This document shows, in pieces, positions 3,212 through 37,421 of a stretch of 40,362 bases of DNA. This DNA is from a phage: sequence record OZ418233.1, one strand, 5' to 3'. The first letter of the stretch is position 1. Each line of letters begins with the position of its first letter. The notes beneath the pieces are model-generated. The model was not told the DNA's origin, searched no databases, and worked only from the letters and a program-made list of their open reading frames with translations. A program made the position numbers and the translations under genes.

Positions 3212-3226
3212 TTACCTGAAAGGTAA
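3212..3226. promoter_or_regulatory. palindromic operator-like motif TTACC-TGAAA-GGTAA
   Basis: Perfect TTACC-N5-GGTAA inverted repeat, about 90 bp upstream of the first virion gene; one of 12 such sites in the window. Confidence 0.55.
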
Positions 3227-3316
3227 TAATTAACGCGTTAAATGTCAACCTTCTACGATAAATAAAACATATGTGGTTAAATTGGTAATAATTTAATTGC
3301 GTACGGAGTCATTGAT

Positions 3317-8418: not shown

Positions 8419-9023
8419 TGGCCTCTGTAGTAGAGATCTGCAATCGTGCGCTGTCCAATATTGGCAATAGCCGCAGCATTAACAGCCTGACGGAAGCCAG
8501 CAAGGAAGCGGGGGAATGTTCGCTGCACTTTGAAGCCTGCCGTGATGCTGTGCTTTCTGATTTTGACTGGAACTTTGCTACCAAACGCGTGGCGCTTGCA
8601 GATACGAGCAATCCACCGCCTGACTGGGAATATGCGTACCAGTACCCGTCCGATTGTCTGCGCATTACTGAAATTATGCTTCCTGGTGTACGCAATCCAA
8701 CAGCAGCAATGCGCGTTCAGTACGAAGTTGGTGCAGACACCGACGGAACAGGAAAGTTGATCTACACAGACCAGCCTCAGGCATGGCTCAAGTATGTCTC
8801 TCGCGTTACAGATGTGAACATGTTTGATGCCATTTTTATGGAGGCGTTGGCCTGGCGTCTTGCGGCAGCTATTAACATGGCGCTGACTGGGAATGCAGAC
8901 CTCGGTACGTTTGCCCTCAATATGTACAATCGCGTGATTCTTAGTGCTGGCTCGCATAGCCAGAATGAATCACAGGAACCACAGCCACCGGTTGATGAGT
9001 TTACCATTGCGAGGTTGTCCTGA
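8418..9023 (+). CDS. tail tubular protein A-like (gp11-like adaptor)
   Basis: 201 aa, immediately upstream of a large gp12-like gene; translationally coupled to both neighbours. Confidence 0.5.
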   Translation: MASVVEICNRALSNIGNSRSINSLTEASKEAGECSLHFEACRDAVLSDFDWNFATKRVALADTSNPPPDWEYAYQYPSDCLRITEIMLPGVRNPTAAMRVQYEVGADTDGTGKLIYTDQPQAWLKYVSRVTDVNMFDAIFMEALAWRLAAAINMALTGNADLGTFALNMYNRVILSAGSHSQNESQEPQPPVDEFTIARLS

Positions 9024-14937: not shown

Positions 14938-15264
14938 ATGACTAAAAATACTCGTTTTTCCCCCGAAGTCCGTCAACGGGCAGTCCGTATGGTTCTGGAA
15001 AGTCAGAGCGAATATGACTCACAATGGGCGACAATTTGTTCCATTGCTCCAAAGATTGGCTGTACGCCGGAGACTCTGCGTGTCTGGGTTCGCCAGCATG
15101 AGCGGGATACCGGGGGCGGTGATGGAGGGCTCACCACCGCTGAACGTCAGCGTCTGAAAGAGCTGGAACGTGAAAATCGTGAACTGCGCCGCAGTAACGA
15201 TATCCTTCGCCAGGCTTCCGCTTATTTTGCGAAGGCGGAGTTCGACCGCCTCTGGAAAAAATGA
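14938..15264 (+). CDS. IS3-family transposase OrfA (HTH)
   Basis: 108 aa ending in a leucine-zipper-like segment ([25 protein letters not shown]); overlaps orfB in the -1 frame as in IS3 elements. Confidence 0.85.
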
Positions 15265-16151
15265 TGCCACTGCTGGATAAGCTGCGTGAGCAGTACGGGG
15301 TCGGACCGCTATGCAGCGAACTGCATATTGCCCCGTCAACGTATTACCACTGTCAGCAACAGCGACATCATCCGGATAAACGCAGTGCCCGTGCGCAGCG
15401 CGATGACTGGCTGAAGAAAGAGATACAGCGCGTATACGATGAAAATCACAAGGTATACGGTGTGCGTAAAGTCTGGCGTCAGTTGTTACGGGAAGGTATC
15501 AGAGTGGCCAGATGCACTGTGGCACGTCTCATGGCGGTTATGGGACTTGCCGGTGTTCTCCGGGGTAAAAAGGTCCGTACGACCATCAGCCGGAAAGCCG
15601 TTGCCGCAGGCGACCGCGTAAACCGTCAGTTCGTGGCAGAACGACCTGACCAGCTGTGGGTGGCTGATTTTACTTACGTCAGCACATGGCGGGGCTTCGT
15701 CTATGTGGCGTTCATCATTGATGTGTTTGCCGGATACATCGTGGGGTGGCGGGTCTCATCGTCCATGGAAACGACATTCGTGCTGGATGCACTGGAGCAG
15801 GCGTTATGGGCCCGTCGACCGTCCGGCACGGTCCATCACAGTGATAAAGGTTCTCAGTATGTATCGCTGGCCTACACACAGCGGCTTAAGGAAGCCGGAT
15901 TACTGGCATCAACAGGAAGTACAGGCGACTCGTATGACAACGCGATGGCGGAGAGCATCAATGGTCTTTACAAAGCGGAGGTAATACACCGTAAGAGCTG
16001 GAAAAACCGTGCAGAAGTGGAACTGGCCACACTCACGTGGGTGGACTGGTATAACAATCGACGATTGCTGGAAAGGCTGGGCCATACTCCTCCGGCAGAA
16101 GCAGAAAAAGCTTATTATGCTTCCATCGGAAACGATGATCTGGCAGCCTGA
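15261..16151 (+). CDS. IS3-family transposase OrfB (DDE integrase-like catalytic domain)
   Basis: 296 aa with rve-type features (WVADFTYV..., HSDKGSQY..., [15 protein letters not shown]); overlaps orfA, consistent with programmed frameshift expression. Confidence 0.85.
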
Positions 16152-21851: not shown

Positions 21852-22019
21852 CTATTTGGAGCGAAATGCCGCCTTGAAGTCGCTAAAAGATGTTCCTGTC
21901 TGGTAAACCATATCCTTGTCGCGCTCTTTGCTTGCGCGACCAAGCATAACTTTTCCAATGACATCCCAGCATTGCTTGGCTTGTTCATTGTGCTGAGTAC
22001 GATTTTTCAACGCTGTCAT
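21852..22019 (-). CDS. hypothetical small protein (55 aa)
   Basis: Not in the supplied ORF track (below 60 aa); found by reading the minus strand: ATG with strong RBS AAGGAGG, translation MTALKNRTQHNEQAKQCWDVIGKVMLGRASKERDKDMVYQTGTSFSDFKAAFRSK, stop 21 bp upstream of the 147-aa gene. Confidence 0.35.
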   Translation of the reverse strand: MTALKNRTQHNEQAKQCWDVIGKVMLGRASKERDKDMVYQTGTSFSDFKAAFRSK

Positions 22020-22031
22020 ATCGCGCCTCCT

Positions 22032-22046
22032 TTACCTTTAAGGTAA
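22032..22046. promoter_or_regulatory. operator-like motif TTACC-TTTAA-GGTAA
   Basis: Perfect copy of the shared palindrome, 13 bp upstream of the 55-aa gene start, directly after a -10-like TAATAT on the minus strand. Confidence 0.55.
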
Positions 22047-22112: not shown

Positions 22113-22799
22113 TCAGAAGAACCCTGCTTTGTCGTTGATGTACTCCGCGTGGGTCTGGATATCACGCAGGCATTTGCTCACACCAACGATGTAGCAGAAC
22201 ATGGTGGTCAGCTCCGCCGCCGCTCCCGATACGTCGTGCCCGTCGTCCTGTAACTGGTTCAGCAGATTCATCAGCAGTGAGTTCTCCGTCAGGCCGAGAA
22301 CACCAGACGGCGAATGAATCAGGCTACGGTAGCCGGGCTTCAGTGGGGCGCTGTAGGTTTTGTTCTCTATCTTCATTGCCTGCATCACTGCTGACGCCGT
22401 GGCGTTGGCTACCTGGTCGGCAACCATCTTTATGCGTTCTTCTTGCGGGAGCGAGTTTTTAATGTAACTTCCGGTGCGGCGGATCTGAGGAAGAACCTCA
22501 CCTGTAACCCATTTACGAAAGCGGTATGGGATAGTGCCTGGTGTCACCGCATCGCGGCAGCGGAGGATCAGTGTGTAGAGGCCTGACTCGTTGATAATAT
22601 TGGTTTCGCCTTGACGGCCTAAGTTAAATTTAGCCCTTTCATCATCATCAAGAGATTTTATTGACATAGTGGGGTTTGTCAGTTGAAGAGCTTTAATAAC
22701 GTCTTTGGCAACAAACCAAGGATTTCCATCAATAACAATGGCTCGAATGGTTGCTTCTGATTCAAAATGAAAAACAGATGGGGTTACGTTAGCAGTCAT
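22113..22799 (-). CDS. Bro-N domain protein (antirepressor-like), 228 aa
   Basis: From internal ATG with RBS AGGTGA: MTANVTPSVFHFESEATIRAIVIDGNPWFVAKDVIKALQL... is a Bro-N-type N-terminal domain; C-terminal about 65 aa is paralogous to the small protein at 23945-24217. Confidence 0.7.
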   Translation of the reverse strand: MTANVTPSVFHFESEATIRAIVIDGNPWFVAKDVIKALQLTNPTMSIKSLDDDERAKFNLGRQGETNIINESGLYTLILRCRDAVTPGTIPYRFRKWVTGEVLPQIRRTGSYIKNSLPQEERIKMVADQVANATASAVMQAMKIENKTYSAPLKPGYRSLIHSPSGVLGLTENSLLMNLLNQLQDDGHDVSGAAAELTTMFCYIVGVSKCLRDIQTHAEYINDKAGFF

Positions 22800-22952
22800 A
22801 GTGATCACCTTTGTAGTTAGGTTAATCACCACTACCGACGCCAATCGGTTGGTGGTGAACTGTGCAGGGTTGGCGTAACCGGCTACAAAGGACCCGGCGC
22901 ACCTTTCGGTGCCCCCACACAGCCCACCATAGAATAGGTGCGCTTTACACAT

Positions 22953-22971
22953 AAAAAAACCGCTTATGCGG
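22953..22971 (-). terminator. candidate terminator/attenuator in the leader upstream of the Bro-N gene
   Basis: On the minus strand: GCCGCATAAGCGG hairpin followed by TTTTTTTA; lies between the operator/promoter region (about 23060-23080) and the Bro-N start. Confidence 0.3.
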
Positions 22972-23065
22972 CATATGTGCCTCTGTAGTAATCCGGGACG
23001 CCAATCCCGGCACTGGATTTTGCCAGTGCCCGATTACTATGGCACAAGAGGAGTGCGATGTAAAT

Positions 23066-23080
23066 TTACCGTAAAGGTAA
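23066..23080. promoter_or_regulatory. operator-like motif TTACC-GTAAA-GGTAA
   Basis: Perfect palindrome; on the minus strand it follows a -35/-10-like pair (TTGATT, 18 bp, TATCAT). Confidence 0.55.
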
Positions 23081-23158
23081 TGATAAGCGCGAAGAAACAT
23101 TAAAATCAACCGTATTTGGTTGATTGCGTTTAACGCTTGATCACCTGAAAGCAAGATA

Positions 23159-23173
23159 TTACCTTTAAGGTAA
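23159..23173. promoter_or_regulatory. operator-like motif TTACC-TTTAA-GGTAA
   Basis: Perfect palindrome 20 bp upstream of the ATG of the 242-aa gene. Confidence 0.55.
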
Positions 23174-23193: not shown

Positions 23194-23922
23194 ATGGAAG
23201 TTTTCTGGATAGTTGTTGGTGTGGTTGCGGTGATTATTTACGTTATCAACCAGAACAAGACTAAGATCTCTGATCGTACGGTCGTTAATCATAACAAAAC
23301 GATAAAGACCGAAGATGGGGAGATAACGATTAATCGTACACAGGTGATAGAACACACCTCTACTCAGTTTCAAAAAACTGGAGGTAATGCGCCTAATATT
23401 TCCGCACCTCCTGCTTATGATAGTGCGGTAATCCAGACATATTATAAACAGCAGGAGTTAGCAAAAGAGAGGCAACTGATTCAGCCAAAGCCGTTTACAG
23501 CTGAGATTCCACCTGGAGTGTCAACGCGTCCGGCATATCATGGAAGATTCCCTGGTGATGACATATCGTCTCAGTCATCTAAAAAAGCACCTCAGGCAAT
23601 ATCAGAGCCAGCAAGAATACCTTCTGTATCGCCGCCAAAAGAAGAATCAGCTAACAGAGTTTCAAGTGGTAGCAAGCAGTGCTTGCGATGCAGAATAAAC
23701 CTTCCATATGAAAAATTCAGGAAATCGTCAAAAAATCCAGATGGATTGACTAAATGGTGTGCAAGGTGTCTCGATGGCCCAAAGAATACACGCCATATGA
23801 AGTGGTGCCCAATTTGTAATGTCCGCAGAAAACGAACCAGCTTTTACCCTAATAATCAAAATGCGGACGGCTTAATGGCATGGTGCAAAACGTGCTGGGA
23901 TGAGCACAAAGCGAAACGATAG
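23194..23922 (+). CDS. membrane-anchored protein with two CxxC zinc-ribbon-like pairs (242 aa)
   Basis: RBS GAGGAAAA; N-terminal hydrophobic helix followed by basic residues; Pro/Ser-rich linker; C-terminal C-x2-C repeats (CLRC, CARC, CPIC, CKTC). Confidence 0.55.
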   Translation: MEVFWIVVGVVAVIIYVINQNKTKISDRTVVNHNKTIKTEDGEITINRTQVIEHTSTQFQKTGGNAPNISAPPAYDSAVIQTYYKQQELAKERQLIQPKPFTAEIPPGVSTRPAYHGRFPGDDISSQSSKKAPQAISEPARIPSVSPPKEESANRVSSGSKQCLRCRINLPYEKFRKSSKNPDGLTKWCARCLDGPKNTRHMKWCPICNVRRKRTSFYPNNQNADGLMAWCKTCWDEHKAKR

Positions 23923-23944: not shown

Positions 23945-24217
23945 TTACCGGGTTTGTTTTCGTAATTGTTCGGCACAATAGTCGAGATGTGTTTGCAGAT
24001 CCCGCATAGACATCTGTGAGCTGGTGACGTAGTTAATCAGTGCAGTCAGTTCGGCAAGTGGGCCATCGACATTAAATCCATCCTTATCGAGATCCCGGAG
24101 TAATTTCATCAAGTGCGATCCCTCCACCAGTGACTTGACGCCTCCCGGCGTGTGAATCCTTTCGGTAAATCCGTCTTCCAGTGGATAGTGATACTGCTGC
24201 ATCTTAATCTTCTCCAT
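23945..24217 (-). CDS. small antirepressor-like protein (Bro C-terminal-domain paralog), 85-90 aa
   Basis: About 45% identical by eye over 60 aa to the C-terminus of the Bro-N protein (…LAELT…RD[IL]QTH…); second ATG at 24202 has RBS GGAGAAG; LexA-box-like palindrome immediately upstream. Confidence 0.55.
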   Translation of the reverse strand: MEKIKMQQYHYPLEDGFTERIHTPGGVKSLVEGSHLMKLLRDLDKDGFNVDGPLAELTALINYVTSSQMSMRDLQTHLDYCAEQLRKQTR

Positions 24218-24279: not shown

Positions 24280-24294
24280 TTACCTAAAAGGTAA
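24280..24294. promoter_or_regulatory. operator-like motif TTACC-TAAAA-GGTAA
   Basis: Perfect palindrome in the divergent intergenic region between the small antirepressor-like gene and the tailspike gene. Confidence 0.55.
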
Positions 24295-34215: not shown

Positions 34216-34230
34216 TTACCGTTGAGGTAA
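34216..34230. promoter_or_regulatory. operator-like motif TTACC-GTTGA-GGTAA
   Basis: Perfect palindrome at the head of the leftward early operon. Confidence 0.55.
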
Positions 34231-34277: not shown

Positions 34278-34292
34278 TTACCCGTTAGGTAA
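34278..34292. promoter_or_regulatory. operator-like motif TTACC-CGTTA-GGTAA
   Basis: Perfect palindrome 62 bp from the previous site. Confidence 0.55.
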
Positions 34293-34349: not shown

Positions 34350-34934
34350 TTATTGTTTGTTTTTTTCGTTCTGGTTGATGACAAATTCAATGTAACTTTC
34401 GATCTTTGCCTTCTCTGTTTCAGGTAGCAATGCGTAGCGCGAGCGGTCATAGTTGATAGTCGCGGGGTCGTGCGGGTGAATCAGTAATTCATATCCGTGA
34501 CGCCCAAATGCGGATGCAACATTCTCCAGGGTGGAAATGGAAACGCTGACCTCATTGTTTAACAGGCGGCTGATTGTTACCTGGGCGACGCCGGATGCGC
34601 GGTGAAGTTTTCCCTGCGTTGAAAGGTCGCGGCTTTCGCTCATCCAGCGTTCCAGGTTGTGAGCCGCCAGTTGACCAATGTCGCTTGGTCCGACAGGCTG
34701 AAAACCTTCCTGAGAAAGCGAGCGATCGATATCAAGCCAGTTACGGGGTTTATTGGCGGCAGCTTCAATTTTTCGCGCAACCTGGTCGCCGATAACCTTC
34801 TTGCCAAGAGCCCAGCGGTTTACCAGATTTGCCTGAGTTCCAAGTTTTTCAGCCATCCGCGTCTGAACACCATTGAATTCACGGTCGATCAAGTCGTTGA
34901 GATTTTGCCTGCGGACGTCCTGGATACTTTTCAT
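34350..34934 (-). CDS. prophage repressor candidate with two HTH (XRE-like) domains, no peptidase domain
   Basis: 194 aa; two HTH-like segments (…TRMAEKLGTQANLVNRWALGK… and …SGVAQVTISRLLNNEVSVSISTLENVASAFG…); divergent from a Cro-like gene with two palindromic operators between them; no Ala-Gly/Ser...Lys S24-type self-cleavage module seen. Confidence 0.55.
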   Translation of the reverse strand: MKSIQDVRRQNLNDLIDREFNGVQTRMAEKLGTQANLVNRWALGKKVIGDQVARKIEAAANKPRNWLDIDRSLSQEGFQPVGPSDIGQLAAHNLERWMSESRDLSTQGKLHRASGVAQVTISRLLNNEVSVSISTLENVASAFGRHGYELLIHPHDPATINYDRSRYALLPETEKAKIESYIEFVINQNEKNKQ

Positions 34935-34989: not shown

Positions 34990-35004
34990 TTACCCAACAG
35001 GTAA
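34990..35004. promoter_or_regulatory. operator-like motif TTACC-CAACA-GGTAA (immunity region)
   Basis: Perfect palindrome in the repressor/Cro-like divergent intergenic region. Confidence 0.6.
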
Positions 35005-35088: not shown

Positions 35089-35319
35089 ATGAGCGATAAC
35101 GGACATTTCGATTTCAAAAAGCACTGGCTTGCACTTACTCCGGATGAGCGTGAAGCCTTCGCACAGGAAGCCGGAACGACGAGTCACTATATCCAGACTC
35201 ACTTAACAGGTAAGCGCAAAATGCCAGGTAAGGTATTGATGAATGGGCTTTTTAAAGCCTGTAAATCAAGACAATGGCTGCGCTCAAAAGCAGAACTGGC
35301 ATACTTCTTCTACTCATGA
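35089..35319 (+). CDS. Cro-like small HTH regulator (76 aa)
   Basis: Small basic protein with an HTH-like segment (EREAFAQEAGTTSHYIQTHLTG), first gene of the rightward operon, divergent from the repressor. Confidence 0.5.
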   Translation: MSDNGHFDFKKHWLALTPDEREAFAQEAGTTSHYIQTHLTGKRKMPGKVLMNGLFKACKSRQWLRSKAELAYFFYS

Positions 35320-37344: not shown

Positions 37345-37359
37345 TTACCTATTGGGTAA
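37345..37359. promoter_or_regulatory. operator-like motif TTACC-TATTG-GGTAA
   Basis: Perfect palindrome downstream of the P-like gene. Confidence 0.55.
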
Positions 37360-37406: not shown

Positions 37407-37421
37407 TTACCTAAGAGGTAA
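37407..37421. promoter_or_regulatory. operator-like motif TTACC-TAAGA-GGTAA overlapping an RBS
   Basis: Perfect palindrome ending 3 nt before ATG 37425; its right half doubles as the SD (GAGGT). Confidence 0.55.

Follow-up and report, generated by a model that had tools for sequence, protein, structure and literature searches.

What is the function of the long structured leader that stands before the Bro-N antirepressor gene in the phage sequence OZ418233.1, and how could it act on that gene? The sequence is that of an epsilon15/phiV10-like (Uetakevirus-type) E. coli prophage. The whole stretch of 40,362 nt is called the window here, all coordinates are positions within it, and the leader is read on the minus strand. 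A previous reading of the letters alone (the sequence-only reading) had proposed a regulatory RNA or an attenuator in this antirepressor leader. The proposal is borne out, since the leader contains a homologue of the C4 antisense RNA preceded by a terminated 77-nt RNA of the isrK family. We give a probability of about 0.8 to the reading that the interval is the RNA control region of an antirepressor operon similar to immI.

The whole window was scanned against the curated gathering scores of Rfam, and one permissive scan was also made. Two full-length matches above the curated thresholds were found inside the interval, both of them on the minus strand. The match to isrK (RF01394) reaches 76.8 bits for a gathering score of 50 and covers model positions 1-77 of 77, and the match to C4 (RF01695) reaches 79.5 bits for a gathering score of 45, with model positions 1-87 of 87 and E = 4e-14. 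The precedent of the P1 and P7 C4 RNA, which had been invoked for this leader, is apt because the interval contains a true full-length C4 homologue. In the permissive scan, the c4-a1b1 family (RF03163) was matched at 23042-22990 with 45.1 bits, 1.6 bits short of its threshold of 46.7, which is passed by P1 (51.0), phi296 (50.1) and Gifsy-1 (48.1). This match overlaps that of isrK, and both cover the same two hairpins. The positions of the features are collected in Table 1.

The gene that follows the leader can be assigned to the antirepressors. Its product matches Pfam Bro-N (E = 5e-20) and PHROG 130, 'anti-repressor Ant' (E = 5e-56), and its homologues are annotated as anti-repressor or anti-immunity proteins in TL-2011b, Tyrion and phiV10. 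An ATG is present at 22799, where the sequence-only reading had placed the start, and the RefSeq coding sequence begins at this same codon.

Concerning the overall folding, significance was expressed as z against dinucleotide shuffles. The sequence-only reading had made its proposal depend on a structure beyond that of shuffled controls, and this is what the whole 240-nt leader displays (z = -5.3; 0 of 200 shuffles as good). The minimum free energy (MFE) of this read-through leader is -105.3 kcal/mol, in a single long-range fold. Nevertheless, folding energy cannot assign the strand because the plus strand of the leader folds equally well (z = -5.8), and the attempt to do so failed with both strands at z of about -5 to -6. 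The minus strand was assigned instead because of the U-run, the Rfam matches, which fall on this strand only, and the G-U pairs in the closing stem of C4.

The IsrK-family RNA is made of hairpin 1 (23029-23010), hairpin 2 (23009-22994), a single-stranded stretch and an intrinsic terminator, and its MFE fold is the family structure (z = -2.5). Both GC-rich hairpins described by the sequence-only reading are found here, as GCACUGG-CAAAAU-CCAGUGC and CGGGA-UUGGCG-UCCCG respectively. The minus-strand hairpin with a U-run that it had pointed out is the terminator, whose stem GCCGC-AUAA-GCGGU (22972-22959) is followed by U7 to 22953 (U-run at 22959-22953 in the terminator scan). Among 52 distinct relatives, the 12 pairs of hairpins 1 and 2 are 97% paired, and 8 of the 12 show compensatory changes. 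Two further traits predicted from the sequence agree with membership of the isrK family, namely a promoter of its own directly before the RNA and, at its 3' end, an intrinsic terminator. In addition, an antirepressor gene lies downstream.

The C4 homologue follows after a gap of 18 nt. It adopts a three-way junction formed by a 17-bp closing stem, a hairpin capped by GAAA and a third hairpin that presents the segment b'. Its MFE is -45.2 kcal/mol (z = -3.6), and it folds into the family structure. Over its 25 stem pairs, 99% of the cells are paired in 61 distinct relatives and 12 of the 25 pairs show compensatory changes, a result to be read with the caveat that the closing stem was in part fixed by the search pattern itself. 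In 82 of 100 distinct loci, this acceptor-like stem is followed by ACCA. Hartmann et al. (1995) reportedly described the processing of the P1 and P7 C4 RNAs by RNase P, and the acceptor-like stem with its conserved ACCA agrees with such processing. By this analogy, C4 is probably released from the leader by RNase P. It should be noted that this 87-nt three-way junction (22934-22848) is the largest structure of the interval and had been overlooked by the sequence-only reading.

Two segments of C4 point to its targets. The segments b' and a' are each complementary to one site in IsrK (b1 and a1) and to one site just before Bro-N (b2 and a2). Hence C4 has complements downstream, one of them on the ribosome-binding site, and a second target pair upstream in the same transcript, both of which are features of C4 membership. 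Over the 40 kb of the window, where 0.00 copies are expected, exactly three copies of the bipartite motif TTGGCG-N(5-35)-CTACARAGG were counted, namely a1-b1, a2-b2 and, as the complement, the segment inside C4. No further bipartite C4 target sites were found in the window. Isolated copies of CTACAGAGG at 8422 and 35334, which have no TTGGCG nearby, were rejected as C4 targets.

The strongest argument for pairing comes from the comparison of relatives, which were retrieved by an unbiased pattern on the C4 closing stem in more than 120 viral contigs. The covariation set comprised 97 distinct parsed loci, with 36 b' loops and 14 a' junctions in 45 combinations, and complements of at least 7 nt were scored in cognate pairs and in non-cognate pairs (about 44-45 combinations). 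A cognate complement was present in 93% of the cases for b1, 91% for b2, 91% for a1 and 100% for a2, against 23%, 21%, 9% and 6%, respectively, in non-cognate pairs. The three copies (the IsrK site, the C4 segment and the site before Bro-N) change together across the 97 loci, which supports RNA-RNA pairing. Moreover, b1 and b2 are often one transition apart and pairing is retained through G-U, as occurs in the window with CUACAGAGG and CUACAAAGG. These differences indicate selection on RNA pairing and not on a repeated protein site. In phiV10, b' reads CCUUUUAG.

Table 1. Coordinates of the leader elements, the antirepressor gene and other features of the window. Palindrome copies are numbered in the order of their positions.
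Feature	Coordinates	Strand	Remark
Promoter candidate TTGATT-18-TATCAT	23080-23109	-	TTGATT 23109-23104, TATCAT 23085-23080; 9/12 consensus positions
Operator-like palindrome TTACC-N5-GGTAA	23066-23080		abuts the conserved -35, touches the -10 of TTGATT/TATCAT
Conserved promoter	23036-23064	-	-35 TTTACA 23064-23059, 17 nt, extended -10 TG-C-CATAGT 23041-23036
IsrK-family small RNA, 77 nt	22953-23029	-	RF01394 match and terminator
a1 UUGGCGU	23004-22998	-	loop of IsrK hairpin 2; complementary to C4 a'
b1 CUACAGAGG	22988-22980	-	single-stranded part of IsrK; complementary to b' with one G-U pair
C4 antisense RNA homologue	22848-22934	-	RF01695
b' CCUUUGUAG	22891-22883	-	loop of the third helix of C4
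a' ACGCCAA	22876-22870	-	C4 junction strand
ACCA after the acceptor-like closing stem	22850-22853	-	tRNA-like 3' end, likely RNase P determinant
a2 UUGGCGU	22844-22838	-	loop of the small hairpin CCGA-UUGGCG-UCGG, downstream of C4
GUGGUGAU box	22825-22832	-	just 3' of a2
b2 CUACAAAGG	22816-22808	-	perfect complement of b'; overlaps the Shine-Dalgarno by 4 nt
Shine-Dalgarno AAGGUGAU of Bro-N	22804-22811	-	read from the sequence
Bro-N antirepressor gene, 228 aa	22113-22799	-	Pfam, PHROG
279-aa frame from ATG 22952	22113-22952	-	through C4, in frame into Bro-N
Palindrome copies 1-5	47-61, 3212-3226, 22032-22046, 23066-23080, 23159-23173
Palindrome copies 6-11	24280-24294, 34216-34230, 34278-34292, 34990-35004, 37345-37359, 37407-37421
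HTH_3 repressor-like frame	34350-34934	-
Divergent 76-aa frame	35089-35319		divergent from the HTH_3 frame
55-aa frame	21852-22019	-	phrog_8607
242-aa frame	23194-23922	+	phrog_6762
90-aa frame	23945-24217	-	phrog_450
ALIL pseudoknot	15219-15335	+	RF01497
tRNA-Arg gene (anticodon TCT)	2813-2889	-

Next to a2 there is a further short element, the GUGGUGAU box. Almost all relatives keep it as GGTGGTGA(T), and its sequence is the complement of UCACCACC, the 3' strand of the closing stem of C4. Judging from this complementarity, the box could form an alternative hairpin with a2 in the loop, or it could compete with the folding of C4 in the precursor.

Regarding the promoter, the sequence-only reading had chosen TTGATT and TATCAT, which are indeed present on the minus strand with a spacer of 18 nt. 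However, the conserved promoter is a second one that it had overlooked, TTTACA-17-CATAGT. This sequence ends 6 nt before the first isrK base, which places the most likely start of the small RNA at about 23029. In dozens of relatives, TTGACx or TTTACA is followed after 17 nt by TATAGT, TATATT or CATAGT, 6 nt before the 5' end of IsrK; the alignment was anchored on the loop of hairpin 1, about one quarter of the sequences were misplaced, and only correctly anchored rows were counted. The region has no excess of promoter-like sites as such (4 found, 4.9 expected). The pair TTGATT/TATCAT, for which the evidence is weaker and which is probably not the one that starts the small RNA, is present in TL-2011b and is not conserved in the wider family. 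By analogy, it may be the counterpart of the second, repressor-controlled promoter of P1 (P2c4/P51a).

The palindrome claimed as an operator, TTACCTTTACGGTAA, is also present, at 23080-23066 as read on the minus strand. Its pattern TTACC-N5-GGTAA has 11 copies in the window against 0.03 expected, and in Uetakevirus-type relatives the half-sites are conserved while the spacer is variable. Three of the copies flank an open reading frame (ORF) for an HTH_3 repressor-like protein and the divergent ORF of 76 aa. Judged by sequence, the copies are probably the operator set of the prophage repressor. In P1, the C1 operators are dispersed in the same manner as the copies of the window, and by this parallel the copy at 23066-23080 would be bound by the HTH_3 prophage repressor, like Oc4/Op51 in P1.

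Taken together, these elements allow a course of events to be proposed, in which the processing, the block on translation, the action of IsrK as a decoy and the part played by the operator are drawn by analogy with the related systems. Transcription would start at about 23029 from TTTACA-17-CATAGT, a promoter flanked by the putative operator of the prophage repressor. Most transcripts would end at the terminator (22972-22953) and give the 77-nt IsrK, which carries a1 and b1, whereas read-through transcripts would contain C4 and would probably be cut by RNase P at the 5' end of the acceptor-like stem. The segments b' and a' of C4 would then pair with b2 and a2 on the antirepressor mRNA, covering the Shine-Dalgarno sequence and blocking translation, and this block would protect prophage repression. 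IsrK, through a1 and b1, would titrate C4 in trans and turn the antirepressor on, or it would pair with C4 in cis in the unprocessed read-through transcript. In fact, the segments a1-b1 and b'-a' are paired with each other in cis in the MFE fold of the read-through leader, which is like structure A of Gifsy-1, a cis pairing shown experimentally (PMC4825925).

Several of these steps have been described in related phages. In Gifsy-1, IsrK stops at its own terminator, and the read-through mRNA is translationally silent, with the middle of IsrK paired with a downstream segment (PMC4825925). IsrK supplied in trans activates the translation of the antirepressor (anrP) 139-fold, and downstream of IsrK processing yields STnc1160, a stable RNA of about 80 nt (PMC4825925). 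Both IsrK and STnc1160 are highly transcribed and abundant in lysogens (PMC7067206). Concerning P1, C4 represses ant via sites around the ribosome-binding site (review PMC12197685; supplement of PMC2864571), and a1/b1 have been proposed as competitors of a2/b2 (PMC2864571 supplement; PMC12197685).

On the other hand, a number of points weigh against the proposal. When mature-like C4 was folded with IsrK or with the region of the translation start, RNAcofold gave a binding energy of about 0, because nested folding cannot represent loop-loop contacts in which the stable C4 fold is kept. For the four duplexes between b' or a' and their targets, 31, 77, 42 and 3 of 300 shuffled queries equalled the real one. 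Single-sequence energies are uninformative here, hence it is the covariation that carries the argument. In Gifsy-1, the authors ascribe the activation to the translation of 'orf45', which overlaps the C4 region, and not to C4, and co-expression gave no support for STnc1160 as a termination factor inactivated by IsrK (PMC4825925). Moreover, the centre of the putative operator lies near -44 relative to the conserved promoter, which may therefore not be active in lysogens, as immunity in trans by C4 would require. Finally, no icd-like gene was found between C4 and Bro-N, whose ATG lies 48 nt after the C4 match, and the translational coupling typical of P1 immI is missing as well. The module would work like immI, yet it is not a c4-icd-ant operon.

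The alternative that survives best assigns a1 and b1 to autoregulation. In this case, C4 would bind the nascent leader and promote the termination of IsrK, limiting its own synthesis as well as downstream transcription. The CI RNA of P4 acts in this way at seqA and seqC, and the Gifsy-1 authors raise the model by analogy with P4 (PMC4825925). In the window, a1 and b1 lie immediately 5' of the terminator hairpin, and they covary with C4 as strongly as a2 and b2 do. Nevertheless, constitutive co-expression of STnc1160 in Gifsy-1 strengthened the growth arrest mediated by IsrK instead of weakening it (PMC4825925), and the 139-fold activation in trans fits titration. This role is a serious possibility, though a rather unlikely one, and autoregulation and a decoy function of IsrK are not mutually exclusive.

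A translated upstream frame would be a different kind of explanation. The ATG at 22952, directly after the U-run, opens the ORF of 279 aa that runs through C4 in frame into Bro-N, and this ORF could be the main actor, either as a longer isoform or by a coupling like that of orf45, with RNA structures that only gate translation. In Gifsy-1, a start-codon mutation or an early stop in the 45-codon ORF lowered the IsrK-dependent translation of anrP (PMC4825925), and 48 of 100 distinct relatives of the window leader have an ATG ORF of at least 40 codons in the spacer. However, the ORF has 20-39 codons in 25 of the 100 and is absent or shorter than 20 codons in 27, and the frame of Tyrion has a stop at codon 5. 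Furthermore, the ATG at 22952 is not preceded by a Shine-Dalgarno sequence, whereas Bro-N has a strong one of its own at the start annotated in RefSeq, and the conservation, with its compensatory changes, is of the kind seen in base-paired RNA. A leader peptide or upstream ORF was rejected as the primary function because relatives do not conserve the frame, and we consider it improbable that translation of this frame is what the leader is for. A purely cis-acting structured 5' untranslated region or constitutive attenuator, with no RNA acting in trans, would suit the terminator inside the leader and its single long-range MFE fold, but it is highly improbable, as such an element has no need of a bipartite motif in three covarying copies or of an ACCA end like that of a tRNA, and the homologous RNAs of P1 and Gifsy-1 are discrete stable species that act in trans (PMC4825925, PMC12197685, PMC7067206).

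The control by C4 proposed above can be compared with P1 immI element by element. The P1 record shows, in this order, the promoters P2c4/P1c4, the C1 operator Oc4, a1, b1, the 77-nt C4, a2, b2, icd and ant. The window presents the same succession of promoter, a1, b1, C4 with b' in a hairpin loop and a' in the junction, a2, b2 and ribosome site. In P1, b' is UCACUAAC in the last hairpin loop of C4 and a' is CUGUCAA in the junction, in place of CCUUUGUAG and ACGCCAA in the window. The spacing between a1 and b1 is 7 nt in P1 and 9 nt in the window, and that between a2 and b2 is 22 and 21 nt, respectively. A repressor operator lies beside the promoter, Oc4/Op51 in P1 and, putatively, the palindrome in the window, and P1c4 (formerly P51b) occupies the place equivalent to that of the conserved promoter. 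Between b1 and C4, P1 also has a hairpin with a U-run (about 3284-3310, CCGCA...UGCGG UAUUUUU; located by eye) that resembles the IsrK terminator, although the P1 leader scores below the isrK gathering score and that of the window above it.

The differences from P1 concern mainly what stands downstream. The a2 site of P1 comes just after C4, and its b2 lies on the Shine-Dalgarno sequence of icd, to which the translation of ant is coupled. In the window there is no icd, nor could a coupling ORF be demonstrated, and the predicted target of C4 is the ribosome site of the antirepressor itself, with b2 on its Shine-Dalgarno sequence. Moreover, the antirepressor is a Bro-N protein of 228 aa instead of Ant1/Ant2, and the host phage is an integrated epsilon15-like podovirus and not a plasmid prophage.

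The isrK locus of Gifsy-1, described by Hershko-Shalev et al. (2016; PMC4825925), shares with the window the series isrK, C4 and antirepressor gene. Its IsrK terminator permits read-through, as that of the window probably does. P1 c4 is never mentioned in that paper, and the two bodies of literature appear not to be connected. In the Gifsy-1 record (NC_010392; 34131-34214, minus strand), Rfam gives a C4 match of 69 bits that falls exactly on the 'orf45'/STnc1160 segment. In both loci, the middle of IsrK is predicted to pair in cis with a downstream segment. They differ in that Gifsy-1 has a separate 45-codon ORF coupled to anrP, whereas the equivalent frame of the window is fused to Bro-N and lacks a Shine-Dalgarno sequence. 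Gifsy-1 also has antQ upstream, where the neighbour in the window is a divergent gene of unknown function, and the operator palindrome is specific to the epsilon15-like lineage.

The same trio is annotated in the APSE phages of Hamiltonella (LR794147), with an isrK-family small RNA, a C4-family small RNA with a' and b', and a gene with a BRO N-terminal domain; a match upstream of the BRO gene in these phages was noted by Rouil et al. 2020 (PMC7313666). The APSE locus has about 69% DNA identity with the window, different a' and b' sequences and no TTACC-N5-GGTAA operator. The APSE records call the hairpin loop a' and the junction b', which is the reverse of P1 usage. The P4 CI RNA is similar in that a small RNA is processed from the leader and has complementary sites upstream and downstream of itself (PMC4825925), but it causes transcription termination ahead of replication genes, and no sequence or Rfam relationship to it was found here, though none was specifically tested.

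With P22 the likeness is only partial. As in the window, the immI region of P22 (mnt, arc, ant, sar) is an antirepressor module that lies among late, tail and injection genes beside the tailspike and combines operator control with RNA control (PMC12197685 and general knowledge). The sequence-only reading had also drawn an analogy with P22 sar, which does not hold, since sar is an antisense RNA on the opposite strand across the start of ant, whereas the regulator in the window is on the same strand and upstream. No plus-strand promoter/terminator pair or Rfam match was found opposite the Bro-N start (about 22780-22850), and no Arc/Mnt-type repressors were found near the module with Pfam.

Leaders of this type are widespread. 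The identity with the window is 82-98% in TL-2011b, phiV10 and related Escherichia phages and 73-79% in the Enterobacter phage Tyrion and Klebsiella phages, and a relationship can still be recognised in Stx, Hafnia, Moraxella and APSE phages. All nine related phage loci tested have C4 behind isrK, at a distance of 17-24 nt, and most of these loci lie upstream of annotated antirepressor, Bro-N or Rha genes. Among 5426 complete E. coli genomes, 950 carry a leader related at the DNA level, with 100% identity in at least six; E. coli 118UI, ML35 and ECO_2_R have an identical locus. The single RefSeq record inspected annotates only the Bro-N gene at this place and no RNA gene. Both RNAs are curated Rfam families and the isrK-C4-BRO trio is already annotated in the APSE records. 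The locus of the window is thus a known arrangement with specificity sequences of its own, and it would not surprise a specialist.

The only mildly new point would be that one and the same device underlies the isrK locus of Gifsy-1 and P1 immI. IsrK and C4 are treated separately in the Gifsy-1 paper (PMC4825925) and in a 2025 review (PMC12197685). In general, IsrK and C4 could be two halves of one immunity module, in which IsrK is the terminated leader with the a1/b1 copies, orf45/STnc1160 is C4, and activation by IsrK is a titration of the antisense RNA by an anti-antisense RNA; we see the chances of this generalisation as evenly balanced. If it is true, the leader module found in the 950 genomes would be a tunable RNA switch for prophage induction, with immunity specificities set by its a'/b' variants. 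In this common family of E. coli prophages, the threshold of antirepressor synthesis, and hence that of induction and of immunity to superinfection, is probably set by the module. The covarying variants (36 b' and 14 a', a small sample) look like an immunity-specificity code, as in P1 versus P7.

Other features of the window lie around the module. The 90-aa ORF, which adjoins the tailspike gene, matches phrog_450 (E = 6e-48), a family that also covers residues 145-226 of the Bro-N protein, so that this ORF corresponds to a free-standing C-terminal domain of the antirepressor. In the divergent 242-aa ORF (phrog_6762, of unknown function), the N-terminus is hydrophobic and the C-terminal part has CxxC repeats similar to the zinc motifs of endonuclease VII or Lar-like proteins; an operator copy lies about 20 nt before the start of this ORF. 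Downstream of Bro-N, the operator copy at 22032-22046 overlaps the region of the ribosome site of the 55-aa ORF, which suggests that this ORF and one of 147 aa, both of unknown function, form a separately repressed small operon. Farther away, the prophage may contain an insertion sequence, as suggested by a full-length ALIL pseudoknot (120 bits), which is the frameshift element of IS3-family transposases, and the tRNA-Arg gene may be phage-borne or mark the attachment site.

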